Positions 1,256-14,973 of a DNA stretch of 64,000 bases are shown here, piece by piece. Below the pieces are notes generated by a model, which had not been told where the DNA came from, searched no databases, and saw nothing but the letters and a program-made list of their open reading frames with translations. The stretch is taken from contig CAVPLM010000014.1 in NCBI GenBank assembly GCA_963706025.1, positions 1-64,000 on the forward strand. The letters run 5' to 3'. The stretch's first letter is position 1. The number at the start of each line of letters is the position of its first letter. Origin of the DNA: an uncultured Actinomycetes bacterium. Lineage in GTDB: Bacteria; Actinomycetota; Thermoleophilia; RBG-16-64-13. The translations under genes and the position numbers were made by a program.

Positions 1256-2221
1256 GTGAGTAGACGCCAGAGATTCATCTTGCGTCGCGGCGGTAGCGCG
1301 TTGGTGATCGCCTTTCTAGCGATCAGCTTCAGCTTCGTGCTCTTCCGCGCGCTACCCGGCGACGCGGTGACGAACATCAGCCGGGTGCCGAACATGCCCC
1401 CGGAGGCACGCGAGGCGATACGTGCCGAGTTCGGCCTCGACAAGCCATTGTCGACCCAGTACGTGCTCTACCTGAAGGAGCTGGTGCAGGGCAACCTCGG
1501 CCTAAGCTTCCAGACGCGGCAGCCGGTGCTCGGGGAGGTCCTGGAAAGGGTGCGCAACACCATCCCCATGGTCGGCGTAGGCGCCGTGGTGGCGATCCTC
1601 GTCGGTACCCTGATCGGTGTCAGCGCCGCCTATCGCCAGGGCACGGTGCGCGACCGTGCCATCACCGGCACCGCCATGGTTCTCTACGCGCTGCCGGTGC
1701 AGTGGCTCGCGATTCTCCTGTTGGTCGCGTTCGCCGGGGTGCTGCCGACCAGCGGGATGAGCGATCCCTACCTGGTCGACCCCAGTTTCTGGACGGTGCT
1801 GCTCGACCGTCTCAGGCACATGGTGCTGCCTTCAGCCGTCGTGACGCTGGTGATATTCGGCTCCTTCGCCCTGGTGGTACGCTCCTCGCAGCTGGAGGCT
1901 CTGGGCGAGGATCACGTGCTGACGGCGCGCGCCAAAGGCTACGGCAACCGGCGCGTCATCTGGCGCGAGTCCTTCCGCTCGGCGTTGCTGCCGCTTGTCA
2001 CCCTCTCCACCCTGACCCTCGGCTGGGTGATCGCCGGCGGTATCCTGGTCGAGACGGTCTTCAGCTGGCCCGGCGTAGGGCTCGCCACCGTGCAGGCGGT
2101 CGGCGGCCGCGACTATCCGATGCTGCAGGGCATCTTCCTGTTCATCACCCTCTCGGTTGTCGCTTTCAACTTCCTCGGCGATGTCCTGCACGCGGTGCTC
2201 GATCCGCGGGTGGTCGAATGA
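1256..2221 (+). CDS. Peptide ABC transporter permease (DppB/OppB type)
   Basis: LPGD...FGLDKPL..QY N-terminus, EAA loop TARAKG, VETVFSWPGVG, RDYPMLQG. Confidence 0.93.
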   Translation: MSRRQRFILRRGGSALVIAFLAISFSFVLFRALPGDAVTNISRVPNMPPEAREAIRAEFGLDKPLSTQYVLYLKELVQGNLGLSFQTRQPVLGEVLERVRNTIPMVGVGAVVAILVGTLIGVSAAYRQGTVRDRAITGTAMVLYALPVQWLAILLLVAFAGVLPTSGMSDPYLVDPSFWTVLLDRLRHMVLPSAVVTLVIFGSFALVVRSSQLEALGEDHVLTARAKGYGNRRVIWRESFRSALLPLVTLSTLTLGWVIAGGILVETVFSWPGVGLATVQAVGGRDYPMLQGIFLFITLSVVAFNFLGDVLHAVLDPRVVE

Positions 2222-3105
2222 GGCTTCTTCGCCGGTTGGCGCACCGCCCGACGATCATCGCCGGGATCGTCATCGTACTCGCCTTCACGCTGGTCGCCAT
2301 CTTCGCGCCGCTGCTCGAGCCCTATCCGACCGACAGGCCCAGTGGGGAGCCCTTCGAGCCGCCCTCGTCGGCTCATTGGCTCGGCACCGACGATGTCGGT
2401 GTCGACATGCTCTCTCTGACCATCGCCGGCACCCAGAACTCGATGCTGGTCGGTTTTGCCGCCGCCTTCGTGGCGATCTTGGTCGGGGGTACCGTGGGCA
2501 TCATCGCAGGCTACCGCGGCGGCTGGAGCGAGACCGGCGTGGTGGGCGTGACCGACTTCTTCCTGGTCATCCCCGGCCTGCCACTGATGATCGTCCTGGC
2601 GGCCATCTTCGGACAGTCGATTTACCACATCGTAGTCGTCATTGGCCTGCTGTCCTGGATGAGTGTCAGCTACGTGGTGCGCGCGCAGGTACATACCCTC
2701 AAGGTGCGCGGCTTCGTGGCCCGGTCGCGTTCTCTGGGAGCCAGCGATAGCTACATCATCCGCCGCCACATCCTGCCCCACGTTGCGCCGCTGCTGGTGG
2801 CTCAGACGGTGCTGGCCGTTGCGATCGCCGTGTTCTTCGAGGCGGCCTTGGCGTTCGTCGGTCTCGGTGACCTGGAGCGGATCTCGTGGGGCACCATCCT
2901 TCAGCAAGCGTTCCAACATACTGCTGTCTCGGCCGGTGCGTGGTGGGCGATTGTGCCGCCCGGAGTCTGCATCGCGCTCGTAGTGCTTGGCTGCTTCCTG
3001 GTCGGCCAGGGAGTGGAAGAAGCGATGAACCCGCGTCTTGGGCACGCCCATGTCGCGCCGCGCTCGTTCGCTCGGCGCTCCACCTGGGTGGAGGAGGAGC
3101 GGTGA
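2218..3105 (+). CDS. Peptide ABC transporter permease (DppC/OppC type)
   Basis: ATG overlaps the upstream stop (ATGA). Motifs PPS..HWLGTD..G.D, RSLGAS..YIIRRHILP and SWG.IL. The ORF-track start at 1702 is too long. Confidence 0.92.
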   Translation: MRLLRRLAHRPTIIAGIVIVLAFTLVAIFAPLLEPYPTDRPSGEPFEPPSSAHWLGTDDVGVDMLSLTIAGTQNSMLVGFAAAFVAILVGGTVGIIAGYRGGWSETGVVGVTDFFLVIPGLPLMIVLAAIFGQSIYHIVVVIGLLSWMSVSYVVRAQVHTLKVRGFVARSRSLGASDSYIIRRHILPHVAPLLVAQTVLAVAIAVFFEAALAFVGLGDLERISWGTILQQAFQHTAVSAGAWWAIVPPGVCIALVVLGCFLVGQGVEEAMNPRLGHAHVAPRSFARRSTWVEEER

Positions 3106-4058
3106 GCATCCTCGAGCTTTCCGACCTGCACGTCTGGTTCGATGCCCCCGACGGGCGCTCGGCTCACGCCGTGCGTGGCGTCGATCTCTCGGTCCGTGAA
3201 GGGGAGCGGGTCGGGGTGCTCGGCGAGTCGGGCTGTGGCAAGACGACGCTGATTCTGGCCGCGATGGGTCTGCTGCCCTCCTTCGCGACCGTGGGAGGGC
3301 GGGTGTGCCTCGACGGTATCGATGTGCTTGCCGACGGCGAAAAGAGTGCCCGCACGGTGCGCTGGACGCATGCTGCCATGGTCTTCCAGGGCGCCATGAG
3401 CGCGCTGAACCCGGTCCACCGGGTGGGCAAGCAGATCGCCGACCCAATGGTCTTCCACAAGCAGCGCTCGCGGTCCGAGGCACGGGCGCGCACCCTGGAG
3501 TTGCTGGAGCTGGTCGGCCTGCCCGCGAGCGTCGCGCGCCGCTACCCGCACGAACTCTCGGGCGGGATGCGCCAGCGTGCCGTAATCGCCATGGCTGTCG
3601 CGTGCGACCCCAAGGTGCTGTTCGCCGACGAGCCGACGACCGCCCTCGATGTGGTCGTGCAGGCACAGATCGGCGATCTGCTGTGCGAGCTCGCCGAGCG
3701 CCTCGGCTTGGCGCTGGTGCTGGTCACCCACGACATCGGCATGATCGCCGAGAACAGCGAGCGCGCCGTCGTCATGTATGCCGGAGTGGTGGTCGAGGAC
3801 GGCCCCACCTACGACGTACTGACGGCTCCCCGTCACCCCTACACGCAGCTGCTCCTGGAGGCTACCCCGGTGGTCAACCGCGACCGCCCGTTGGTCTCCA
3901 TCCCGGGTGCCCCGCCACGCCTCGATGAGCCGATCAGCGGCTGCGCCTTCGCGCCCCGCTGTCCGTACTCTTCTAGGACCTGCGGCACACGTCCACCGCT
4001 GGAGGGCGCCGGCCATGTCGTCGCCTGCCATGCTGCCGCCCAGGGGAGGCTGGCATGA
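3102..4058 (+). CDS. Peptide ABC transporter ATP-binding protein (DppD/OppD type)
   Basis: GTG after GGAGGAG, overlapping the upstream stop. Walker A GESGCGKT, YPHELSGGMRQR, ADEPTTALD, C-terminal HPYT...C.FAPRC. Confidence 0.93.
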   Translation: MSILELSDLHVWFDAPDGRSAHAVRGVDLSVREGERVGVLGESGCGKTTLILAAMGLLPSFATVGGRVCLDGIDVLADGEKSARTVRWTHAAMVFQGAMSALNPVHRVGKQIADPMVFHKQRSRSEARARTLELLELVGLPASVARRYPHELSGGMRQRAVIAMAVACDPKVLFADEPTTALDVVVQAQIGDLLCELAERLGLALVLVTHDIGMIAENSERAVVMYAGVVVEDGPTYDVLTAPRHPYTQLLLEATPVVNRDRPLVSIPGAPPRLDEPISGCAFAPRCPYSSRTCGTRPPLEGAGHVVACHAAAQGRLA

Positions 4059-5122
4059 ACGGCGCCGCCATGGGCACTGCCTCCATAGGCACCGCCCCCG
4101 TGAGCGCTACCCCTGCCGCCGAGCATCTGCTCGAGGTGCGCGACCTTTCCGTGCATTTTGTCCTCAGGCGCTCCTTCTCCGATCGCCTGAAACGGCGCTC
4201 TGGGCGGATCGCCCGCGCTGTCGACGGCGTCAGCCTCAGCGTCGATGCCGGCGAGCTGCTCGCCCTGGTCGGCGAGTCGGGCTCCGGCAAGACGACCCTT
4301 GCTCTGGCAGCGCTGCGTCTGCTCGACCCTACCGCCGGTACCGTGCTGCTCCAGGGCAGCGACGTCACCCGTCTGCCACGCGGCGCGCTGCGCTCCTTGC
4401 GCCGCCGCGCACAACTCATCCACCAGGACCCGTACGCCGCGCTGGACCCGCGCTTGCGGAGCCGGGAGATCGTGGCGGAAGGCTTGCGCATTCATGGCTT
4501 AACGGCCTCGAAGGAGGACGAACGTGCGCAGGTCTATGCCTCCTTGACCAAGGTCGGCCTCACCCCGCCCGAGAGCTTCGCCGAGCGCTACCCACACCAG
4601 CTCTCCGGCGGTCAGCGCCAGCGGGTGGCGATCGCCGGCAGCCTGGTGCTTTCGCCATCCTTGCTGGTGGCCGACGAGCCGGTCTCCATGCTCGACGTCT
4701 CGGTGCGCGCCGGCGTCCTCGAGTTGCTGGACAAGCTACGCCGCGAGGAGGGACTCGGTATCCTGATGATCACCCACGACCTGGCGACGGCAGCGCACGT
4801 CGCCGACCGCGTAGCGGTGATGTATCACGGTATGCTCGTCGAGTTGGGCCCGGCGCGCAGCGTCATCGATGCTCCTCAGCACCCCTACACGCAGGCCCTG
4901 ATCGCTGCGGTGCCGCGCGTCCACCGCGAAGAGGCGCGCAAACGCACCCTCCCGGGCGAGCCGCCCGATGCCTCGCAGGTGCCGCCGGGCTGCCGCTTCC
5001 ACCCGCGCTGCCCGATCGCAATGGAGCGCTGCCGGGAGGAGGTGCCGCAGCTTCTTCCGGGAATCACCTCCGGCGAGCAGATCTTGGTCGCCTGTCATCT
5101 GCGAAGCGCATCGAAAGCGTAG
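4055..5122 (+). CDS. Peptide ABC transporter ATP-binding protein (DppF/OppF type)
   Basis: GESGSGKT, YPHQLSGGQRQR, ADEPVSMLD, CRFHPRCP. Confidence 0.93.
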   Translation: MNGAAMGTASIGTAPVSATPAAEHLLEVRDLSVHFVLRRSFSDRLKRRSGRIARAVDGVSLSVDAGELLALVGESGSGKTTLALAALRLLDPTAGTVLLQGSDVTRLPRGALRSLRRRAQLIHQDPYAALDPRLRSREIVAEGLRIHGLTASKEDERAQVYASLTKVGLTPPESFAERYPHQLSGGQRQRVAIAGSLVLSPSLLVADEPVSMLDVSVRAGVLELLDKLRREEGLGILMITHDLATAAHVADRVAVMYHGMLVELGPARSVIDAPQHPYTQALIAAVPRVHREEARKRTLPGEPPDASQVPPGCRFHPRCPIAMERCREEVPQLLPGITSGEQILVACHLRSASKA

Positions 5123-5158
5123 CGCTCCTGGGAGCTCCTGCAACCGTTACTCTCCGAA

Positions 5159-5179
5159 AATCACCCATCTCGGGTGATT
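5159..5179. promoter_or_regulatory. Palindromic operator AATCACCC-N5-GGGTGATT, candidate site for the MalT-like regulator
   Basis: Perfect 8-bp inverted repeat just upstream of the C45-aminotransferase-AOR operon. Assignment to the regulator is inference. Confidence 0.55.
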
Positions 5180-5355
5180 GGAATAAGCCGCTGAACAGTG
5201 TTGTATGAAAGGAGAGATCATGCTGAGCCGTTGCCGCGCGATGCCAGCAGCGCGAGGCTTCGCGGTCAACGGCCCGCCCAGCGGAGTCAAGCGGGCGGCG
5301 CCCTCAGACAAGGAGGCGGTTGTCAAAGCGGCCTTGGGGATGGAGAACGATCATC

Positions 5356-6510
5356 ATGGGTGAAACGAGCAGCAAGCGAGAGTACGTGTGCGTCGAAGGC
5401 TCTCCGGTCAACAGGGGATTGATCTATGGGGAGACCCTGCGGACCGAGATCCGAGAGCTGATCGAGCTTTGGAAACAGAACCTCGAGCGAAACACCGGGA
5501 TGCCGGCGGAGGACTTTATCACGAAGTTCCTCGATCACACCGGATACCTACCTGCGATCCAACGGTTCACCCCCGGGTTGCTGGAAGAAGTCAGGGGGAT
5601 CGCGAAGGGCTCCGGCAATAGTCTCGACACGATCTTCGCCTTCCAACTGCTGGACGAACTGATCCTGAACGCAGGCGACGTGGCCGGCCACTGCAGCAGC
5701 ATCGGTGTGGATAGGACAGAGACAAAGCCCGCCTTACTCGGTCAGAACTGGGATATTGAGGGTTTTGTACACGGGTTCCAGACTGTGCTGCATGTCAAAG
5801 AAGAAGGCTCGGACATCGAGTCTCTCGTGTTCACTTACGCCGGCATGATCGCTGCCTTCGGTGTCAACAATAGGGGCATCGGTGTCTGTCTCAACAGCCT
5901 GCCGATACTGCGCTATGCGCAGACCGGGCTGCCGGTGGCATACGTTATCCGCGGCATTCTGGCAAATCCAACGATCGACGGCGCGTTGGACTTCGTGAGA
6001 ACGATCGACCATGCCTCGCCCCAGAACTATTTGATCGGGGACTCCGAGAGGATAGTTGACCTAGAGTGCTCCTCGGGAAAAGTCGTCCAGTTCTCCGTCG
6101 CGGGCAATCCGGGTGTGGTCTTCCATACGAATCATCCCCTGGTGAACGACGACTACAGTTCCAAGTACACCGCACTTCTCAGAGACCGCGAACGAGGCGA
6201 GAGGACGGATGAGTCCTATCACGCTGCCGTGGGATTCATGGAACAGAATTCCGGCACACGCTTCTTGACCCTCGAGAAAGAGCTGGGCGCTCTTCCGGCC
6301 GAAGAGATCACGGTCGACAGGATCAAGTCCATCCTGGCTTCGCACGACTCGTCCGACCATCCGATCTGCATGGATCTGGGGGACGAGACCAAGCTCACTT
6401 CCATAGTGTCGACGGTGATCGAACTGTCTGGCGATCCCCAGTTCCACGTGGCGTTTGGACCGCCCGATGTCACACCGTACATGACATACACATTCTCGGA
6501 TACTCGGTAG
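5356..6510 (+). CDS. C45 family autoproteolytic Ntn-hydrolase/acyltransferase (AAT/Tan-like amidase)
   Basis: EEVRGIAKGS, processing site GH/CSSIG with Cys nucleophile, LGQNWD, GVNN.GI, HTNH. Confidence 0.85.
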   Translation: MGETSSKREYVCVEGSPVNRGLIYGETLRTEIRELIELWKQNLERNTGMPAEDFITKFLDHTGYLPAIQRFTPGLLEEVRGIAKGSGNSLDTIFAFQLLDELILNAGDVAGHCSSIGVDRTETKPALLGQNWDIEGFVHGFQTVLHVKEEGSDIESLVFTYAGMIAAFGVNNRGIGVCLNSLPILRYAQTGLPVAYVIRGILANPTIDGALDFVRTIDHASPQNYLIGDSERIVDLECSSGKVVQFSVAGNPGVVFHTNHPLVNDDYSSKYTALLRDRERGERTDESYHAAVGFMEQNSGTRFLTLEKELGALPAEEITVDRIKSILASHDSSDHPICMDLGDETKLTSIVSTVIELSGDPQFHVAFGPPDVTPYMTYTFSDTR

Positions 6511-6540
6511 ACGAGCGAAGGTCAGAAAAGGGCGGCCGTC

Positions 6541-7881
6541 ATGCTTCTTGAGGACTACATCGATCAGTACACGTCGAGAACGAAGAAGTCTGAAGCGATC
6601 TGGAACGAAGCCAAGATGGTGCTACCCGGCGGCGTTGCAGGAAATGCGGGGTTTCTAGCACCCCGCCCTATCTATTTGAGAAGGGCGAAGGGCGGGAAGC
6701 TCTACGACGTCGATGGAAATGAATACATAGATCTGATGCTGAGCGGGTTCGCGAACATTCTCGGGCACAGCCCCGATGCGGTCGTCGCTGCTGTGAAGAG
6801 ACAGCTCGAGCTTGGGACCTCCTACATTCTGTTCAATGAAACGGGACTCAAGCTCGCGAAGATGATTCAGAAGCATCAGCCGCACGTCGAGATGATCCGC
6901 TTTGCCAACACAGGTTCAGAGGCGACGATGTTCGCCCTGCGAGTGGCAAGATCCTTCACGAAGAAAGACAAGATAGCCAAACCTGAAGGCGGCTACAACG
7001 GCCAGCACGACTACGCGCTCGTAAGCGGCAGCACCGGTATTGCAGGCTCGGCCAGCAGGCCGGAGGGATGTTCGGGAAGCGCGGGGATCCCGCGCTATAT
7101 CCCGGAGCAAACCGTCGTATTTCCCTGGAACGATACTGAGGCCACCGTCTCTATCATCGAAGAGAATGCCGGTGAACTGGCCGCCGTGATACTGGAACCC
7201 CTTCCCGGTTTTGGTATGGGGACCATAAGCCCTGGGAAGGGCTACTTGGAGGCGATCCGGGAGGTAACTGCCAAGCACGGCATCCTATTGATCTTCGACG
7301 AGGTCGCGACCGGCTTCAGGGTTGGTGGCATGGTCGGATCGGCGCGCTATTTCGGTGTGACGCCGGACCTGTCCTGTTACGGCAAAGTCATTGGTGGTGG
7401 ATTCCCCGTAGGAGCCTTCGGCGGTAGGAAAGACATCATGGAAACGACCCTCGGTCCGAACGCCAAGCCCGAGGACAGGGTATTCCAATCCGGGACCTTC
7501 ACCGGCAATCCGATCACCATGGCCGCAGGTCTTGCTTGTCTGGAAGAGCTCGAGGCCAGCGATTATGCGCATATCGATAGACTGGCCGAGAGGATCAAGA
7601 ATGGCCTCACGACCATTGCGGCGGAGAAGGGCTATCCGATACAGGTTACCGGTGAGGGGTCCATCTTCTACCCTCACTTCAATGACAGCCCGGTCAGAAC
7701 CATGCGGGACAAACTGAAGGACAACACCACCAGGAATAGGTTGTTCTCCATGGGTCTGATAGCGCACGGTATCTACGCGCCTCCCAATCACGCACTTGCG
7801 ACCTGTTTTGCCCATACAGACGCGGACGTCGACTACATCTTGGAAGTCAGCGAGGAAGTCATGGGAGCCATGCAGGAGTAG
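6541..7881 (+). CDS. Class III PLP aminotransferase, glutamate-1-semialdehyde aminomutase-like (probably not true HemL)
   Basis: LPGGV, YDVDGNEYID, FANTGSEA, LIFDEVATGFR, PLP lysine in GKVIGGG, SGTFTGNP. Has YNGQHD where HemL has YHGH. Confidence 0.85.
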   Translation: MLLEDYIDQYTSRTKKSEAIWNEAKMVLPGGVAGNAGFLAPRPIYLRRAKGGKLYDVDGNEYIDLMLSGFANILGHSPDAVVAAVKRQLELGTSYILFNETGLKLAKMIQKHQPHVEMIRFANTGSEATMFALRVARSFTKKDKIAKPEGGYNGQHDYALVSGSTGIAGSASRPEGCSGSAGIPRYIPEQTVVFPWNDTEATVSIIEENAGELAAVILEPLPGFGMGTISPGKGYLEAIREVTAKHGILLIFDEVATGFRVGGMVGSARYFGVTPDLSCYGKVIGGGFPVGAFGGRKDIMETTLGPNAKPEDRVFQSGTFTGNPITMAAGLACLEELEASDYAHIDRLAERIKNGLTTIAAEKGYPIQVTGEGSIFYPHFNDSPVRTMRDKLKDNTTRNRLFSMGLIAHGIYAPPNHALATCFAHTDADVDYILEVSEEVMGAMQE

Positions 7882-7886
7882 ATGTG

Positions 7887-9755
7887 ATGCTCGGCTACAT
7901 GAACAGACTGCTACACGTGGACCTGTCTCGCATGTCTTTTGAAACCTGTGAGCTGGACCAGGACGATGCCCGGGACTACATCGGAGGCAGCGGGCTCGCG
8001 GCAAAGATCCTGTACGACGAGACGGATGGTGGCACTGATCCGCTTGGACCTGAGAACGTGATCATCTTCATGACCGGTCCGTATACCGGTACCCGAGCAT
8101 TGTCATCATCGAGGCATGTAGTGGTCGCCAAGTCGCCGCTGACCGGTCTTTTCGGGGAGGCGAACTCCGGGGGATCCTGGGCAGAAGAACTCAAGAAGAG
8201 CGGCTTTGATGGCATAACCGTTGAGGGTATGGCTTCCAAGCCCGTGTATCTCTGGATCCACAACGGCGAGGTAGAGCTCAGACCGGCGGAGCATATCTGG
8301 GGCAAGGACACCTTCACCACGGATGCCATCGTGAAATCCGAGACCAGCAGACAAGCGGTAGTGGCATGCATCGGGCCGGCCGGAGAGAAGCTGATACCGT
8401 TCTCAGTGATACTGAACGACGGTGTCCATGCCCGAACAGCCTCCAGGTGCGGCCTGGGTGCGGTCATGGGTTCCAAGTACTTGAAAGCCGTGGCCGTTGC
8501 CGGTGATCTCGATTTTCCGATATACGACCCCGAGAGTCTGAAGCGATCGATCAGGGGCGTTGCGAAGGAGGTAATGACCAGGTCGGTCGGTCTGAGACTG
8601 TTCGGAACAGCTGGGGGTCTGGTCGGATCCGAGGCCCGGGGAGGACTTCCCCTGAAGAACTGGGGATACTCGGGAAGGTGGGAAGAAGGCGCCGCCAAGA
8701 TCACAGGAGCGACCATACTCGAGGCCTACAAGACCGACGACTACCGCTGCAGACGGTGCATGATAAGGTGCGGCAAGAACGTGAGGCTGCCAGAAGGCGC
8801 AGGTGTGGGGGAGGAGCAGGCTGTTCCTGAATACGAATCGCTGGCACTCCTAGGAAGCAATTGCCTCATTGATGATCCAGTGGCTCTGATCAGAGCAAAC
8901 GACCTGTGCAATCGCTACGGCCTGGACACCATGACTACCGGTGGTGTCATTGCCTTTGGCATGGAGGCCTTCGAAAGGGGCTTGATATCTCCGCAGGATA
9001 CGGACGGTATCGACCTCTGCTGGGGGAATGCGGAGGCCCTGATCCAGACGATCCACAAGATCGGTCAGCAGTCGGGGATCGGCAGGCTTCTCGGCCTCGG
9101 CACCCGCGGCGCTGCCGCAGAACTGGGGCAGAACGCGGAGGAGTTCGCCATACACGTGAAAGGGCTGGAATTCCCGGCGCACGACCCAAGGGCGTACAAC
9201 GCCGGGGGAGTGAATCTGGCTACATCAAACATCGGAGCCAGCCACCAGTGTGGGTTCTCCCATGCTTTCGAGAGAGATCTCTCGGCGCCCGAGATCGGTA
9301 TCCCCAGCCCTACCGATCCATTTGAGATCGAAGGGAAAGGGGTCCTCGCTGCCAAGTCGCAGAACTACATGGGCATGATCGACTCTCTGATCACCTGCAA
9401 ATTCGTCATGTACGGGGGGATAGGGATCTCCACAATGATCGAGTGGTATCGGCAGATCACAGGCAGGGCCATGGACGTAGACGAATTCATGAAGGCCGGG
9501 GAGAGAATCTTCAACACGAAGCGAATCTACAATGTCGATTGTGGGGTAAGCCGCAAGGACGACACTCTGCCTCAACGCATCCTGACGCTGCCGAAAAGCG
9601 GTGACGGGCATAGCCCCAATCTGCCGCATCTGGGAAGGATGCTGCATGAGTACTACCAATACAGGGGCTGGTCGGAAGACGGCATTCCCACTCGGGAGAA
9701 ACTGGATGACCTGGGAATCTCAGGGAAGGAATGCAGGCAGGGATCATTCCGATAG
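7887..9755 (+). CDS. aor: Tungsten-dependent aldehyde:ferredoxin oxidoreductase family protein
   Basis: YIGGSGL, KSPLTG, IGPAGEK, R.GLGAVMGSK.LKA, CxxCxxxC Fe-S motif, EYES, CNRYGLDT, HDPR, DDTLP.R, EYY..RGW..DG.PT. Confidence 0.92.
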   Translation: MLGYMNRLLHVDLSRMSFETCELDQDDARDYIGGSGLAAKILYDETDGGTDPLGPENVIIFMTGPYTGTRALSSSRHVVVAKSPLTGLFGEANSGGSWAEELKKSGFDGITVEGMASKPVYLWIHNGEVELRPAEHIWGKDTFTTDAIVKSETSRQAVVACIGPAGEKLIPFSVILNDGVHARTASRCGLGAVMGSKYLKAVAVAGDLDFPIYDPESLKRSIRGVAKEVMTRSVGLRLFGTAGGLVGSEARGGLPLKNWGYSGRWEEGAAKITGATILEAYKTDDYRCRRCMIRCGKNVRLPEGAGVGEEQAVPEYESLALLGSNCLIDDPVALIRANDLCNRYGLDTMTTGGVIAFGMEAFERGLISPQDTDGIDLCWGNAEALIQTIHKIGQQSGIGRLLGLGTRGAAAELGQNAEEFAIHVKGLEFPAHDPRAYNAGGVNLATSNIGASHQCGFSHAFERDLSAPEIGIPSPTDPFEIEGKGVLAAKSQNYMGMIDSLITCKFVMYGGIGISTMIEWYRQITGRAMDVDEFMKAGERIFNTKRIYNVDCGVSRKDDTLPQRILTLPKSGDGHSPNLPHLGRMLHEYYQYRGWSEDGIPTREKLDDLGISGKECRQGSFR

Positions 9756-9759
9756 TGAC

Positions 9760-10951
9760 ATGAATGGAAGACCAGACACGCGGAAGCCCGTATGTGCAGT
9801 CGCAAAGCATAAGAACGCAAAGAAAGCTGTTTGGGATGCTCTGAGTCGGATCGAGATACCTGATCTGACCGGCATGCGGGTTCTTCTAAAGCCAAACATC
9901 GGCCGCAAGGTGCACAAGCACACGGGGATCAATACAAACCCGGAAGTCACCGAGGCGGTCTTCGAGTTTCTCAGCGCCCGCTTCGATGCCGGCTACTACA
10001 TCGGCGATTCACCCGTCACGGGTGTCAAGAGCAAGGAGGCCTTCGCGGCCAGCGGGCACGGTGGCTTCTTAGAGCGACAGGATATCGAGTACCTCGATCT
10101 GGATAGCCGGAGGCCTACGAGAGTGCCCATAGCGGATGGGCGCATCCTTGAGGAGATCAAAGTCACCGGGTTCATTCATGACTTCGACTACGTCATTTCC
10201 ATACCCGTTCTCAAGATGCATATGCATACCGGTGCCTCTCTCGGATACAAGAACATGAAGGGGCTTCTCTACAGGCGGGAGAAGATCAGGTTTCACCAGC
10301 TCCACGCGCCCGAAGCGAAGCAGACGTACGGATGCAGGGAGCTGGACCTGGCGATAGCAGACATGGCCAGGGTCTTGGAGCCTGATCTGGTGGTTTGCGA
10401 CGCAACCTATGCAATGGAAGGTATGGGACCGTCGGCAGGGGATCGAAGACAACTCGATACCGTTATTGCCTCAACCGACTGTCTGGCGGCGGATATCGTA
10501 GCCTTGGCCGTCGTGAAACTGGATATCGATCACGTGCCCCATCTGCGTTTGATCGCCGAGCAAACCGAGGGAGTGACATCGGTTGAGGATATACGCACCA
10601 TTCCCGACGATATTGAACCGTTCAAGACCGATTTCGCGGTGCCGCCCACGGAGATAGTCATACAGAATCTGATGGTGAATCTGCTCGATGAGGGATCATG
10701 CTCAGCCTGCCAGTCTTCGGTGTACCTGTTCCTCAAGAACAATGAGGGCTTTGATAAGCGAGTATCAGGGAGAACATGGCCACTTCAATATCGCCATCGG
10801 TAGCGACATAGAAGAAGTGCCGGTGGATACATTCGTGATCGGCAACTGTGCCGCCTGCCACAAGGAAAGGGGGACGTTCCTGATGGGATGCCCACCCGAC
10901 CAGACGAGCATCATGGAAATGGTTAGGAAGAAGCTGTCGGACAAGGCATAG
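9760..10951 (+). CDS. DUF362 domain iron-sulfur protein; frameshift near 10750 in this assembly
   Basis: VLLKPN, T.PEV, IS.PVLK.H, KNMKG, EGMGP, CSAC. The Cys-rich C-terminus (IGNC...GCPP) continues in the shifted frame to the stop at 10951. Confidence 0.8.
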
Positions 10952-10968
10952 GGTTCACCGCAGACCGT

Positions 10969-13674
10969 TCACACGTAGTTGAGTTCTCTGGCTCTCAGAA
11001 TGGCCTGCTCCCGGGTGGTGACTCCGAGCTTGGTGTAGATGTTCTTGATGTGCGTCTTGACTGTATTCAGGGATATGAACGAGTGCCCGGCTATCTCCTT
11101 GTTGGTAAGTCCGATGAAGATCAGCCTGAGTATCTCGATCTCCCGCTGTGACAAGGCTTCCGAATCGCCGACAATCACGGGCCGGCCGCCGGACTCGGCA
11201 TTCAGCTTCAGTCGGCACGCTTTGAGCAGCTCCGACGCATGTATTCTGACGACACCCTTGGGGCTTTTGCAGAGGGAGACAAGCAGATCAACAAGATACT
11301 CGGCGTTCTCTACGAAGGGACGGACGTAGCCTTCAGGGCCGGCGAACTCGATGCACGACGCCAGTACGTCCAATGCTTCCTCTTCGCGGCCGAGGGCGTA
11401 TAGGCACGCTGCGGTAAGAACATCGACGGTGACCAGCGAAGTCTGCCGGTGCCTGCTCGAGACTCGGGGGCGGAGGGCGAATAGGAGATCCGCAGCCTCC
11501 TGATACCGGCCCGATGCCATTTCGAACTGAGCCATCAGCAGGCATTCTTTCTCGAAGTTTCGAGAAAAGGGCTCTGTGACGCGCAGCCTGCGCTGTGCCG
11601 CCCACCTGGCAACCGTGTCAAGCTCAGACTGCACGACGGCCAACTGGACCGCTGCCAGCTCGGTGGAAGCGATACGGACCGAGGATCTGGTCTGTCTCGC
11701 GATCTGAAGGGCCTCGGTCATTATTCCCTTGGCAAGGTCGTGATGCCCAAAACTCTCGTTGATGAAAGCCTGCAGCTTGAGACCCAAGAGCAGGTAGCCG
11801 ATATCGGACACGGGTCTGGCATATTCAGTGCAACGTGAGGCATGTTCCAGAGCCCTGTCCAACTGGTTCTTGCCGTAGTAGACCTGGGCAAAGGTGATAT
11901 TGAACATAGCCATGGCGGACCTCAGGGGCGGGTCTTCTCTCCGGGCATATTCCAGGGCATCCGTCAGCAGTTCTTCGGCAGCTCTCAGGTGACCGAACAG
12001 CAGCTCGAGGCGGGCCTGCCTGTTCAACAAATGAACCTTCACGTAGTTGCCTCTGCCGGGGTCCAGGCGGCCGACTACATCCAGCCCGGATTGCACCACA
12101 TCCATCGCCGGCTGAAGGTCCCCCTGTTCGATGTGTGCCGTAGACAGGACTGATTGCACAAGCCAACGGGCCATCACATTCCGAGTGGAGATCGTCCGCA
12201 GCGCCCGCTCAGCTGCTGCGATCACCTCGGCGGGCTCCCTGTAGTAGATGCAGTTGAGCTTCAGCGCCAGAAGCAGGTCCTCAGCATGCTTCCGCTTCTC
12301 GCTCGAGTACGAATCCGTCATGGCGTCAAAGGAGTCTTCCAGTTCCGCGATCGTAGCAGTTATGTCGCTGAGCTCCTCCTGGAGGAACACCACCAGGGCA
12401 TGGTAGAGGAGCAGGAGGAAGCGCCGCTCCAGAGTCTCTTCCGGGAGACTCTCCAGCCATCTACGGGCGATCGTCCACTCATAGCTGTAGATCAGCGTCA
12501 TGAACTTGCTCTCCACCAACCCGGCTGCGAACTCGAGGTCGTTGGAGCTGAAGGCGTGGTGGAAGGCTTCCTCCAGGTATCCGTGGTCGGCATACCAGGC
12601 ACTGGCCCTCTTGTGGAGGTCAGGAATGGACGGGGACCCGGTGCTCTGCAGTCGGCGTTGGAGCATCTGGGCAAACAGCGGATGGTATCGATACCACTGC
12701 GACTTGCTATCCAGTGGAATGACGAAGAGGTTCTTGCGCTCCAGCTCGTCGAGCATATCGCGGGTGTAGTCACCTTCGGTCATGTGAAGACAGAGATCTG
12801 CGCTTAGCTGTCTCAAAACGGCCGTCTTCAGAAGGAAATCCTGAACCTGGCGGGACTGGTTGGTGAATACTTCCTCAAACAAATAGTCGAGCATGTACTT
12901 GTTCTGGAAGACGTCGTTGGCCGTCAGTCCTTTGGGAATGTTGCCCTTCAGCAAGGACAGACCGACGACTTGGAGCCCTACGGGCCATCCTTCGGTCAAC
13001 GAGTGTAGCTCCTGTATTTCTGCCAGTGGCAGGTCTAATTGCATCGTATTGTGAAAGAAGTATGCGGAGTCATCCAAACTGAATTGTAGATCCGGCATCT
13101 TGAGTTCCGTTACTCCCTGTCCCGCTCGGAGGCGCGACAGTTGGAACGGTGGATCCTGCCGAGTGATGATAGTCAGGTGAAGTTGAGGTGGACAGCGGCG
13201 CAGCAAACTTTGTATGTCGTGATGAATCGAGGAAGACTCTATAGCATGGAAATCGTCAAGAACTAAATAGAAACGTTCATTGAGGTAAGAGAAGCGGTTT
13301 ATGATGTTGGCGATAATTGTCTGCCCGACCACAGTGTGTCCCTGAAGGAGGGGGTCGAATGCTGCTTTCAGGGAGCGGTGCAGGTCCTGCAGTGCAGTAA
13401 GAAGGTAGCGGTAGAAGACGCTGGGCTCGCTGTCGCTCTCATCGAGGGAGTACCAGGCTACGGGCATCTCTTGCTGAGCGATCCACTGGCAGACAAGGGT
13501 CGTTTTGCCGAAACCTGCCGGCGCGGAAACAAGCGTCAGCTTGCCGAGCGCTCCTTGGTTGAGCCTCTCGATGAGGTGAGAGCTCGGTACGAGTCGCGGT
13601 TGGAGCGGGGGGACCGAGAGTTTTGTTCTCAGCAGAACGATATTGGCCTGCTCAGCGACAGATATGGAGGCCAT
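10969..13674 (-). CDS. MalT-like (LAL) ATP-dependent transcriptional regulator with C-terminal LuxR HTH
   Basis: TKL.VPP, Walker A APAGFGKTT, LVLDDFH, TEGWP, WYRYHPLF, LSQREIEIL...LTNKEIA...ISLNTVKTH. Start chosen at the ATG after a GGAGGGAG SD. Confidence 0.92.
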   Translation of the reverse strand: MASISVAEQANIVLLRTKLSVPPLQPRLVPSSHLIERLNQGALGKLTLVSAPAGFGKTTLVCQWIAQQEMPVAWYSLDESDSEPSVFYRYLLTALQDLHRSLKAAFDPLLQGHTVVGQTIIANIINRFSYLNERFYLVLDDFHAIESSSIHHDIQSLLRRCPPQLHLTIITRQDPPFQLSRLRAGQGVTELKMPDLQFSLDDSAYFFHNTMQLDLPLAEIQELHSLTEGWPVGLQVVGLSLLKGNIPKGLTANDVFQNKYMLDYLFEEVFTNQSRQVQDFLLKTAVLRQLSADLCLHMTEGDYTRDMLDELERKNLFVIPLDSKSQWYRYHPLFAQMLQRRLQSTGSPSIPDLHKRASAWYADHGYLEEAFHHAFSSNDLEFAAGLVESKFMTLIYSYEWTIARRWLESLPEETLERRFLLLLYHALVVFLQEELSDITATIAELEDSFDAMTDSYSSEKRKHAEDLLLALKLNCIYYREPAEVIAAAERALRTISTRNVMARWLVQSVLSTAHIEQGDLQPAMDVVQSGLDVVGRLDPGRGNYVKVHLLNRQARLELLFGHLRAAEELLTDALEYARREDPPLRSAMAMFNITFAQVYYGKNQLDRALEHASRCTEYARPVSDIGYLLLGLKLQAFINESFGHHDLAKGIMTEALQIARQTRSSVRIASTELAAVQLAVVQSELDTVARWAAQRRLRVTEPFSRNFEKECLLMAQFEMASGRYQEAADLLFALRPRVSSRHRQTSLVTVDVLTAACLYALGREEEALDVLASCIEFAGPEGYVRPFVENAEYLVDLLVSLCKSPKGVVRIHASELLKACRLKLNAESGGRPVIVGDSEALSQREIEILRLIFIGLTNKEIAGHSFISLNTVKTHIKNIYTKLGVTTREQAILRARELNYV

Positions 13675-13815
13675 TGGACCCGCACTCCCTCCGTTCTCGC
13701 ATGCACGTCTGCCACTAGTCAGCAGGCGAACGCCAAAGGCGGCCATGCTCGAGCAGCCTCGGCCCGCCCGCGTAATGATGCGCCCGGCCGCCGCTTGGGG
13801 TCAAGAGGCTAGGCC

Positions 13816-14973
13816 TCAGCGCGGTATCACGCGGCCGTCGACCTCCTCCATGTCGAACCACCACTTGCGGCTGGGGTCCTCCTTGCCGTAGCCGAGCACG
13901 TCGTCGAGCCAGATGAGGCCGCGGCGGGCGAGCTGCGACCGGGCGGCGAGCGTGGTGGCCACCGCGTGGTACCAGGTGTCGGCCTTGTTCCAGGGACATA
14001 CCTTTATGCATCGCCCGCAGCTCGAGCCGTGTGCGTTGGTGACCCGGAAGCGCGTGCACGACTCTATGTCGTTCCTCCAGATCTGGTAGCCGTTGTACAT
14101 GGTCTGCGGTCCCTCGGGGATAGAGCCCGACGGGCACTCCCGGGCACACTTCTTGCAGGCGGCGCAGAACTGCTGCAGGCCGAAATCGATGGGTCTGTCG
14201 GGTGCGAGCGGCAGGTCGGTCGTCACCACTGCTGCCTTGAACCGGGGGCCCATGAAGGGGTGCAGTACGATCCCGCCAATGCGGCAGATCTCGCCCAGGC
14301 CTGCCAGGAGGAGGATCGGGGGGACGACCACCTTGTAGTCCGAGGCGTGATGGGCCCGCGCGGAATAGCCGAGGCGGCGGATGTAGTCGGCCAACATGCA
14401 GGCGGTGAATGCCGAGCCTGTATAGGCCCGGAAGCTCTGAGAGTTGCTGACCCAGTCCCGTCCACTCCCGGCCGCGAAGGACGGGTAGTTCTGGTCGATC
14501 AGGATGGCTATAGCATGGGTGTGTCCCAGGTCGACGGCCTTGCCGTTCTTGTCGAAGGAGTAGACGGCGTAGGGCGGCAGCTCGCAGATGCCCACGTCAT
14601 CGGCGCGCATGAAGAGCGCCGTCTGCTTGACGTGCCTGGAGAGGACGAGCGGGTCGTCGGGCAGCGGCGCTCGCGGCGCAGCGACCGGACCATCCACCAC
14701 CTCGGCCAGATGCAGCTGCATGGCGAGCATCGCCCCCGACAGCGGGTATTTCTCCACAAAACGCTGTCGCTCGCGTTGGGCCACTGGACCGTAGTCCCCG
14801 CGCAACGCCCGGTTGAAGCCATGCTCCCGCTCGTCGAAGCAGGCGACTTCGTGGGTAATCTTTGTGGTGGGGCGGCTCACCCGGCGAAGCCGGTGCGCGG
14901 CGTAGCGCTGGTTGAGGCGGTCGCGACGGAGCCCGCCCGGCACGGCGATGCTCGCGGGGTCGGTGGTCATCAC
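13816..14973 (-). CDS. rdhA: Cobalamin/2x[4Fe-4S] reductive dehalogenase, cytoplasmic catabolic (NpRdhA-like) type
   Basis: ADDVGIC, IRRLGYSARAH, AGLGEICRIG, HPFMGPRFK...TTDLPL, CX2CX2CX3CP and CX12CX2CX3CP, C-terminal KWWFDME. No Tat signal and no adjacent rdhB. AGGAGG SD. Confidence 0.82.
   Translation of the reverse strand: MMTTDPASIAVPGGLRRDRLNQRYAAHRLRRVSRPTTKITHEVACFDEREHGFNRALRGDYGPVAQRERQRFVEKYPLSGAMLAMQLHLAEVVDGPVAAPRAPLPDDPLVLSRHVKQTALFMRADDVGICELPPYAVYSFDKNGKAVDLGHTHAIAILIDQNYPSFAAGSGRDWVSNSQSFRAYTGSAFTACMLADYIRRLGYSARAHHASDYKVVVPPILLLAGLGEICRIGGIVLHPFMGPRFKAAVVTTDLPLAPDRPIDFGLQQFCAACKKCARECPSGSIPEGPQTMYNGYQIWRNDIESCTRFRVTNAHGSSCGRCIKVCPWNKADTWYHAVATTLAARSQLARRGLIWLDDVLGYGKEDPSRKWWFDMEEVDGRVIPR

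Follow-up and report, generated by a model that had tools for sequence, protein, structure and literature searches.

A conserved C45 hydrolase, GSAM-like aminotransferase, aldehyde:ferredoxin oxidoreductase and DUF362 gene block with a MalT-like regulator: a candidate operon for anaerobic amide breakdown

The stretch of DNA analysed here, which we call the window, is the first 64 kb (positions 1 to 64,000) of contig C14 of a metagenome-assembled genome (MAG) from an uncultured Actinomycetes bacterium; the MAG amounts to 3.66 Mb in 30 contigs, with 92% completeness and 7.3% contamination. Between positions 5356 and 10951, four genes on the plus strand follow one another in the order C45 N-terminal nucleophile (Ntn) hydrolase, GSAM-like class III aminotransferase, aldehyde:ferredoxin oxidoreductase (AOR) and DUF362 protein, spaced 30, 2 and 4 nt apart and all ending in TAG. 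A gene for a MalT-like regulator converges on this set, and the stops of the DUF362 and regulator genes are 17 nt apart. A preliminary description of this DNA had claimed a tight co-directional four-gene set with a convergent LAL regulator, and had assigned the five genes to these families; the gaps bear out the first claim and the Pfam and NCBIfam profile scores the second. The genes and an accompanying palindrome are as follows.

5356..6510, plus strand: C45-family Ntn amidohydrolase/acyltransferase, autoproteolytic, 384 aa (NF040521, PF03417)
6541..7881, plus strand: class III pyridoxal-phosphate aminotransferase, GSAM-like, 446 aa (PF00202, 211 bits)
7884..9755, plus strand: AOR-type aldehyde:ferredoxin oxidoreductase (tungsto- or molybdopterin and [4Fe-4S]), 623 aa (AFOR_N, AFOR_C)
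9760..10951, plus strand: DUF362 protein, 396 aa if intact, start ATG 9760 (PF04015)
10969..13746, minus strand: MalT-like (LAL) transcription regulator, 925 aa (AAA_16, TPR_MalT and GerE domains)
5159..5179, no strand: perfect palindrome AATCACCC-N5-GGGTGATT, candidate operator (palindrome search, comparison with contig L090)

All five genes are found in the same order on L090, an unrelated metagenome contig of 26 kb (26207 bp) with a uniform GC content of 62-73%. The proteins of the window and of L090 are 67% (C45), 72% (aminotransferase), 70% (AOR), 71% (DUF362, over 387 residues) and 66% (regulator) identical. The regulator gene is co-directional with the others in L090 but convergent in the window, and the flanks of L090 are unlike those of the window: the C45 gene is preceded, at a distance of 35 nt, by an APC permease gene, and farther upstream are genes for a peptidase of family S58 (DmpA/BapA-type), another APC permease, a GNAT protein, a corrinoid protein and a URO-D-like methyltransferase. 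The preliminary description had named a lack of co-occurrence elsewhere as a ground for refutation; the recurrence of the five-gene block in L090 speaks the other way, and from these comparisons the gene set is judged to be a conserved unit. The five genes could also be chance neighbours in a variable island, or the product of a chimeric assembly, as the estimated contamination of the MAG (7.3%) and the flanking genes without close orthologues in three same-genus genomes, a sign that this region varies in general, might suggest. However, gene order and tight spacing are kept at ~70% identity in L090, the palindrome is conserved, and both junctions of the block are reproduced in a second contig of the same population (L089) and in contigs of independent runs, so that this explanation is largely contradicted and highly improbable.

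The GC content of the region 5150-13746 is 57.1%, against 66.1% in the left and 65.3% in the right flank. Nowhere else in the genome does an 8.6-kb stretch have a GC content this low: 0 of 6822 sliding windows reach it (mean 64.0%, standard deviation 1.7%). Third codon positions have a GC content (GC3) of 0.67-0.74 within the block, compared with 0.79-0.89 in the genes next to it on either side and 0.68 in a more distant ABC permease open reading frame (ORF). The genome-wide sliding GC and the GC3 values confirm the earlier statement that the block is more AT-rich than its flanks; the hand counts on single lines given with that statement (28/60, 27/60 and 48/60) proved exact when recounted. 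The GC boundaries are bridged by contigs of runs X3 (4988-5719, left) and X1 (11477-14200, right), and the separate metagenome contig L089 reproduces both junctions with 99% identity. Because L089 and these run contigs span both, the junctions are genuine and not an assembly artefact.

A C45 gene was found in none of 40 relatives (three at genus, 21 at family and 16 at class level), and in 400 sampled genomes of the phylum no AOR comes closer than 44% identity. Outside the phylum, AOR matches at 63% identity carry the label Desulfobacteraceae, DUF362 matches are labelled Desulfobacterales at 56% and in many cases Asgard archaeon at 46-49%, and a C45 match at 50% is labelled 'Deltaproteobacteria bacterium'; the metagenome runs holding the stretch are from freshwater and sediment. 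Given the lowest GC content of the genome, the absence of C45 from the 40 relatives and AOR identities of at most 44% in the sampled genomes of the phylum, the simplest reading is that the block was horizontally acquired. None of the 11 scanned ORFs is an integrase or transposase, border repeats and tRNAs not having been searched for. No empty insertion site could be defined in the three same-genus genomes, where relatives of the flanking ABC ATPase and reductive-dehalogenase-like proteins are 40-50% identical.

The C45 protein scores 181.2 bits with NF040521 (cut-off 85) and 51.2 bits with PF03417 (cut-off 23.2), and ATG 5356 as start codon agrees better with the 384-aa homologues than TTG 5320 does. 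Within the motif GH↓CSS, its Cys113 is shared by all 30 aligned homologues and located at the expected autoproteolytic site, and is the putative nucleophile. The sole sequence relative in the PDB is isopenicillin N acyltransferase (2x1d), a weak match with 47.7 bits. Another member of the family, Tan of Drosophila, reportedly hydrolyses beta-alanyl-amines. According to PMC10445470, the bacterial C45 enzyme AzsT strips an N-succinyl group by amide hydrolysis in azaserine biosynthesis. The close clade around the window protein (at least 65% identity) comes from metagenomes only and contains no characterised member. Isopenicillin N acyltransferase, Tan and AzsT all make or break amide bonds, and the C45 protein of the window belongs to the same family.

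The aminotransferase matches PF00202 with 211 bits (cut-off 30.5) and shares the fold-type I class III scaffold of GSAM/HemL: its best PDB matches are GSAM structures with ~300 bits, and it retains the catalytic Lys, that of GKVIGGG aligning with the Schiff-base Lys of GSAM. One could therefore suppose that it is the HemL of the organism and that its neighbours are unrelated to it, the more so as it is the best match to the hemL model in the genome (380.8 bits) and lies just over the broad PRK00062 model (401.8 bits, cut-off 398). However, it scores 381.1 bits against a cut-off of 527.3 with the hemL model TIGR00713, and the L090 orthologue, with 359.3 bits, is below both cut-offs. In the alignment, the solved GSAMs 3bs8, 3k28 and 2hoy have GGV(N/S)SPVRAF and (P/A)PSQFE at the positions where the window protein has GGVAGNA-GF and PNH--. 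The Arg of SPVRAF and the Glu of SQFE hold the substrate in GSAM, and both are lost with the replacement of these motifs. We aligned 143 of the 150 returned representatives (380-520 aa) with the window and L090 proteins; neither motif is present in 133 of the 145 rows, the two module proteins among them, and three rows contain both. In the FastTree tree, the window and L090 aminotransferases pair with 100% support within a starred clade of 22 rows that holds no motif-bearing row, and the three motif-bearing rows are in a separate starred clade of 12 rows. Furthermore, hemA was not found in the genome, which is 92% complete (best score 28.8 bits, cut-off 209.55). The HemL assignment is contradicted by these results and retains next to no probability; the preliminary description had named clustering with true HemL as a ground for refutation, and the protein does not cluster with it by score, motifs or tree.

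After GSAM, the nearest NCBIfam models of this aminotransferase are aldehyde/amine transaminases such as GntE (306 bits), and GntE, ForI and the beta-phenylalanine aminotransferases are the GSAM-like transaminases with which it can be compared; the closest 50%-cluster representative is 49% identical. The NCBI pipeline would probably name the protein GSAM, so a gene that automatic annotation would probably call HemL is here recognised as something else. On a separate point, the genome as a whole contains no hemA and no HemL over cut-off, which suggests that it has no C5 tetrapyrrole pathway.

The third protein matches AFOR_N with 254 bits and AFOR_C with 401 bits. Judged by its scores with solved relatives, namely 9mqx_D (440 bits), 1aor (391), AorB 8c0z (309), FOR (293) and BamB (210), it is closest to the canonical AORs and not to FOR, GAPOR or BamB. 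Residues C289, C292, C296 and C505 are invariant in 42 homologues, and by comparison with 1aor they are the putative [4Fe-4S] ligands; judged by sequence, the metal may be either tungsten or molybdenum. Amine catabolism by a transaminase and an aldehyde oxidiser is reportedly exemplified by PatA/PatD, which act on putrescine in E. coli, and phenylacetaldehyde is said to be oxidised by a tungsten AOR in Aromatoleum aromaticum, with an AOR reported in Pyrococcus furiosus as well. The logic of these systems is the same, from an amine or amino acid via an aldehyde to a carboxylate, but in the window the AOR gene stands directly behind that of a GSAM-like transaminase, with a C45 amidase gene before both. 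The block encodes no AorA/AorC-type subunits and no polyferredoxin, and the DUF362 gene follows instead.

A second Aminotran_3-then-AOR pair is encoded elsewhere in the same genome (L122, G000:C5:1063000-1079000), at 6986-8299 and 8223-10100 of that locus. Its subfamilies differ from those of the window, and a gene resembling ADP-forming acyl-CoA synthetases lies 3 kb downstream; the pair is an independent instance of transaminase-AOR pairing in the same organism. Altogether the genome has ~18 AOR-family paralogues and five DUF362 paralogues, an unusual expansion for 3.66 Mb.

The DUF362 protein scores 148.8 bits with PF04015 (cut-off 24). In the window its gene is broken by one extra T (TTT for TT) at 10750-10752, which leaves the frames 9760-10803 and 10688-10951. 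The alignment shows no extra T in L089 and L090, one base at 10746 or 10750 is likewise missing from the contigs of all three DNA runs that span this position, and the intact protein of L089 has 396 aa. The break is thus an assembly error or a population variant and not a property of the module. A second difference was seen at ~8075-8085 of L089 (window 10852-10857), where L089 and runs X1 and X2 have GNCAAL and the window and L090 have GNCAAC; this variable Cys is outside the four invariant Cys described below.

An AlphaFold2 model of the DUF362 protein, built from 52 homologues (pLDDT 91.5, pTM 0.88), gave LarA-family racemases as all of its 12 best Foldseek matches in the PDB (E 6e-7 to 3e-5). 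Residues 16 to ~317 superpose on the LarA family in VIA-align with Z scores of 14.6-18.4 and a root-mean-square deviation (rmsd) of 2.8-3.6 Å over 206-230 residues; for malate and lactate racemases, Z is 17-18.4 and the rmsd 3.0 Å over ~218 residues. The LarA-fold domain proper is placed at residues ~16-300. Residues 304-396 resemble PSST/NuoB of complex I and the N-terminal region of the small subunits of [NiFe]-hydrogenases, with middling Z scores of 5.8-7.0 over 83-91 residues. This C-terminal Cys domain is an extra of the DUF362 protein compared with LarA. Its C314, C317, C363 and C377 (the last in GCPP) are invariant and form the pattern CxxC...GNC...GCPP, presumably equivalent to CxxC...GxC...GCPP, which we take to be the ligand pattern of the proximal [4Fe-4S] cluster in NuoB and the hydrogenase small subunits. 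On the basis of the model, the protein has the LarA fold, joined to what is probably a [4Fe-4S] module, and is not a ferredoxin. The label 'Fe-S protein' given to it earlier agrees with the four invariant Cys, although no Pfam Fe-S domain (and no PF09861) was matched. The role of electron-transfer partner, also proposed earlier, does not hold in the sense of a simple carrier or ferredoxin in view of the LarA-fold body, but the [4Fe-4S]-like last ~90 residues are in keeping with it.

The LarA homologues of this genome and of its relatives have the motif H-x9-K-x15-H, containing the catalytic His, the cofactor-tethering Lys and the Ni-binding His, and the invariant H154-x9-K164-x14-H179 of the DUF362 protein parallels it. 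A comparison of 52 DUF362 with 24 LarA sequences by hhalign was not significant (Prob 0.06, E 0.76), and the same was true with a single LarA; in this non-significant alignment, H154 falls on LarA H173, K164 on K183 and H179 one column from H199. No counterpart of LarA H105, the second catalytic His, was seen. In PMC11770544, DUF362 serves as an outgroup of the LarA superfamily, and both belong to Pfam clan CL0471. No function is in print for any DUF362 in the literature searched, and the ESM Atlas gave unnamed DUF362 clusters only.

The genome encodes LarC and two LarA homologues. LarC is present in 111 of 151 genomes of the phylum (seven unpublished genomes included), too common to test its co-occurrence with DUF362, and in control genomes it occurs in four of the five DUF362 holders against six of 14 overall, a sample that is too small (one-sided hypergeometric p ~0.06). 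In Synechococcus elongatus and Haloferax volcanii, LarC and DUF362 occur without LarA (PF09861); although a far too small sample, this pattern is compatible with DUF362 making use of nickel-pincer nucleotide (NPN) as its cofactor.

A different role for the DUF362 protein, doubtful in our estimation, is that of a new redox enzyme with an NPN-like hydride cofactor in the LarA-fold and a [4Fe-4S] cluster, which would pass the electrons of the AOR directly into hydride transfer. Its LarA-fold domain has apparent counterparts of the cofactor-tethering Lys, the Ni-binding His and one of the catalytic His residues of LarA, and so might accommodate such a cofactor. Such an enzyme would take the electrons without free ferredoxin and could reduce a 2-oxo acid or another by-product of the transamination. 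If this were true, the operon would be a self-contained, redox-balanced module for amide fermentation; it would place DUF362 in a functional context for the first time and show the LarA scaffold in a role other than that of a racemase. DUF362 proteins are widespread in Asgard archaea and Thermodesulfobacteriota; an NPN-type or new redox enzyme among them would widen the chemistry of the LarA scaffold and could contribute to explaining the many organisms that make the nickel-pincer cofactor without LarA. In any case, this large family gains a testable context through an AOR partner, a LarA-like fold and a probable [4Fe-4S] domain.

The regulator contains the domains PF13191 (AAA_16), PF17874 (TPR_MalT, 138 bits) and PF00196 (GerE, 66.5 bits), which is the architecture of MalT/LAL regulators, with an NTPase, a MalT-type tetratricopeptide repeat region and a GerE helix-turn-helix; like these, it is encoded beside its presumed target genes. 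With 419.7 bits over residues 38-828, it remains below the MalT cut-off of 537 in NF003420 and is, as far as these profiles tell, MalT-like but not MalT.

The palindrome at 5159-5179 is situated 37 nt past the stop of the upstream ABC ATPase gene and 177 nt ahead of the ATG of the C45 gene. It is the sole match in the window at up to three mismatches (shuffled sequences have a mean of 0.14) and the sole match in the 3.66-Mb genome at up to one. L090 keeps both arms unchanged at 8353-8373, where they likewise come shortly after an ABC ATPase remnant and before the operon, but the five central bases and the surrounding DNA differ. Such conservation of the arms around a free spacer, at loci whose proteins share ~70% identity, fits a dimeric DNA-binding protein. 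The MalT-like regulator is the obvious candidate for binding this palindrome as its operator, a pairing that we infer; the half-site GGGTGA bears some resemblance to the MalT box. Together, palindrome and regulator give a starting point from which to identify the inducer and, through it, the substrate.

Upstream of the palindrome are the genes of an ABC importer; these, and the gene that adjoins the regulator gene on its other side, are listed here.

1702..5122, plus strand: Dpp/Opp-type ABC importer genes (Pfam and NCBIfam matches)
1702-3105, plus strand: ABC permease C, true start probably later than the ORF start
2886-4058, plus strand: ABC ATPase D
4055-5122, plus strand: ABC ATPase F
13816-14973, minus strand: reductive-dehalogenase-like gene, adjoining the regulator gene (TIGR02486)

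The ABC importer genes have a GC content of 66-69% and are outside the low-GC stretch. In L090, a truncated Dpp/Opp ATPase remnant (7905-8279) is situated between the S58 peptidase gene and the permease gene, in the same orientation and 74% identical to residues 249-351 of ATPase F. Since L090 keeps this remnant upstream of the C45 operon, the importer was probably already linked to the operon in a common ancestor, despite its host-like GC content, and it is the probable uptake system of the unit.

We also searched for linkage through a proxy, in which close homologues of C45, AOR and DUF362 share both the source label and the size of the longest contig, which is suggestive, adjacency itself not being observed. 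By this measure C45, AOR and DUF362 go together on contigs of 26207 bp (which is L090), 37125 bp, 7338 bp and 14603 bp, and C45 and AOR on contigs of 13598 bp and 6276 bp, which suggests linkage on at least five further contigs. A metagenome scan with C45 gave three loci: L089, L090 and L091, the last being a 2.4-kb contig with 47% identity and without neighbours. Among more distant C45 relatives (34-48% identity; the best 80 of 552 loci in genome contigs), a relative of the aminotransferase was encoded at three loci, of the AOR at one, and of DUF362 and the regulator at none, and none of these adjoined C45. Of the 147 nearest neighbours of such distant loci, 97 co-directional ORFs were examined, and there was no Aminotran_3, AFOR or DUF362 among these; peptidases or amidases account for 12 of them (M1, M19, M16, two S9, two M20, S58, penicillin amidase, M48, creatininase and beta-lactamase), and SBP_bac_5 and OppC also occur. 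By this survey, the four-gene combination is specific to the clade of at least 65% identity, so far from metagenomes only.

The proxy also links AOR with DUF362, in the absence of a matching C45, on contigs of 8913, 27175 and 10940 bp and down to 60-62% identity. This would agree with a true two-protein redox unit of AOR and DUF362, to which C45 and the aminotransferase were attached as a separately evolved feeder in this lineage only, so that the pathway would be a rather loose association. The distribution of the families points in the same direction, as the DUF362 subfamily is common in Asgard archaea (46-49%) and reaches 56% in a Desulfobacterales-labelled protein, and the C45 matches of comparable identity are mostly labelled Chloroflexi, KSB1 or archaeon, with one Deltaproteobacteria at 50%. 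However, a missing C45 may lie past the contig end or in a cluster with another longest contig, and the AOR matches were listed only at 55% identity and above. Moreover, in the organism's own genome, none of the four other DUF362 paralogues is beside any of the ~18 AOR paralogues. Searches for a DUF362 orthologue in five genomes with distant C45 (E 1e-30) and in 201 genomes of one archaeal phylum (1e-70) found none and are uninformative. On balance we regard a separate AOR-DUF362 unit as a minor but serious possibility.

Taking the locus as a whole, we give a probability of roughly one half to a catabolic operon of an anaerobe, acquired by horizontal transfer and inducible by its substrate, that leads from an amide via an amine and an aldehyde to an acid; the chemical steps, the direction of flux and the substrate are derived from family chemistry. 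A small amide or peptide-like compound would be imported by the Dpp/Opp-type ABC system in the window and by the APC permeases in L090, and the C45 Ntn-hydrolase would cleave its amide bond. From the primary amino group thus released (omega or beta), the GSAM-like aminotransferase would produce an aldehyde, which the AOR would oxidise to the carboxylate, releasing low-potential electrons. The DUF362 protein would be the dedicated partner of the AOR, passing the electrons on via its C-terminal [4Fe-4S]-like domain or using them at a LarA-like site, and the MalT-like regulator would sense the substrate and activate the operon from the palindrome. To judge by the peptidase and the transporters nearby, the likeliest substrate class is that of beta-alanyl or omega-aminoacyl amides, or else of N-acylated amines.

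Several points weigh against such an operon. C45 enzymes are also capable of acyl transfer and AOR is reversible, so that the flux may run either way. No ferredoxin gene was found inside the block. The sole trace of RNA is a 230-nt contig at 10850-11075 from the metatranscriptome run X20, which is no proof of transcription. The host-like GC content of the ABC genes blurs the borders of the transferred unit, and the frameshift in DUF362, if real, would leave the window module without an intact DUF362 protein. The full block was seen directly in a different organism on one contig only, L090, as L089 is from the same population; on the other contigs linkage is deduced from equal size and was not seen, and the AOR match on the 14603-bp contig is just 56% identical, so that this AOR may differ or be a second copy.

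A biosynthetic use of the genes is an alternative, in which the AOR would reduce an acid with reduced ferredoxin, the aminotransferase would aminate the aldehyde and the C45 enzyme would N-acylate the amine under LAL control. GSAM-like relatives such as GntE aminate aldehydes, as their family name indicates, the only solved C45 relative is an acyltransferase, and AzsT belongs to a natural-product pathway; AOR is reversible and LAL regulators control secondary metabolism, both of which we counted in its favour. Nevertheless, no CoA ligase, carrier protein, non-ribosomal peptide or polyketide synthase, or exporter was among the ORFs scanned in the window and L090, importers stand beside the block in both organisms, and L090 has a peptidase as well. 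Acid reduction needs electrons of very low potential, for which the block encodes no source. We therefore consider biosynthesis unlikely.

For the catabolic operon, the amine-to-aldehyde-to-acid chemistry is already known, as is the fact that anaerobes employ AOR on aldehydes. The fixed set with C45, a non-HemL GSAM-like transaminase, DUF362 and a MalT-like regulator was not found in print, in agreement with the earlier impression that it is not a described pathway; the literature searched left subscription journals largely outside. The newest element is the link between DUF362 and AOR together with the domain make-up of the DUF362 protein. Such an operon would represent a conserved mobile gene set for anaerobic amide or amine breakdown, in which a tungsten AOR replaces the usual NAD-dependent aldehyde dehydrogenase.

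A scan for promoters and terminators gave counts no higher than chance, and the ~35-nt pieces also present in run X20 lie on conserved motifs and are no evidence of transcription. A 47-codon ORF at 5221-5364 on the plus strand has a strong AAAGGAGAG ribosome-binding site and overlaps the C45 start codon; it is probably spurious, as it shows no conservation in L090. Beyond the regulator gene, the reductive-dehalogenase-like gene at 13816-14973 is accompanied by a DAO-family oxidase gene. Its product scores 194 bits with TIGR02486 (cut-off 160), contains two 4Fe-4S motifs and has same-genus relatives that are 40-41% identical at most. In L090, the genes of the corrinoid (B12-binding) protein and the URO-D/MtaA-like methyltransferase (1936-3781) are upstream of the GNAT, permease and S58 genes, and the pair may form a demethylation system for a related N-methylated substrate.

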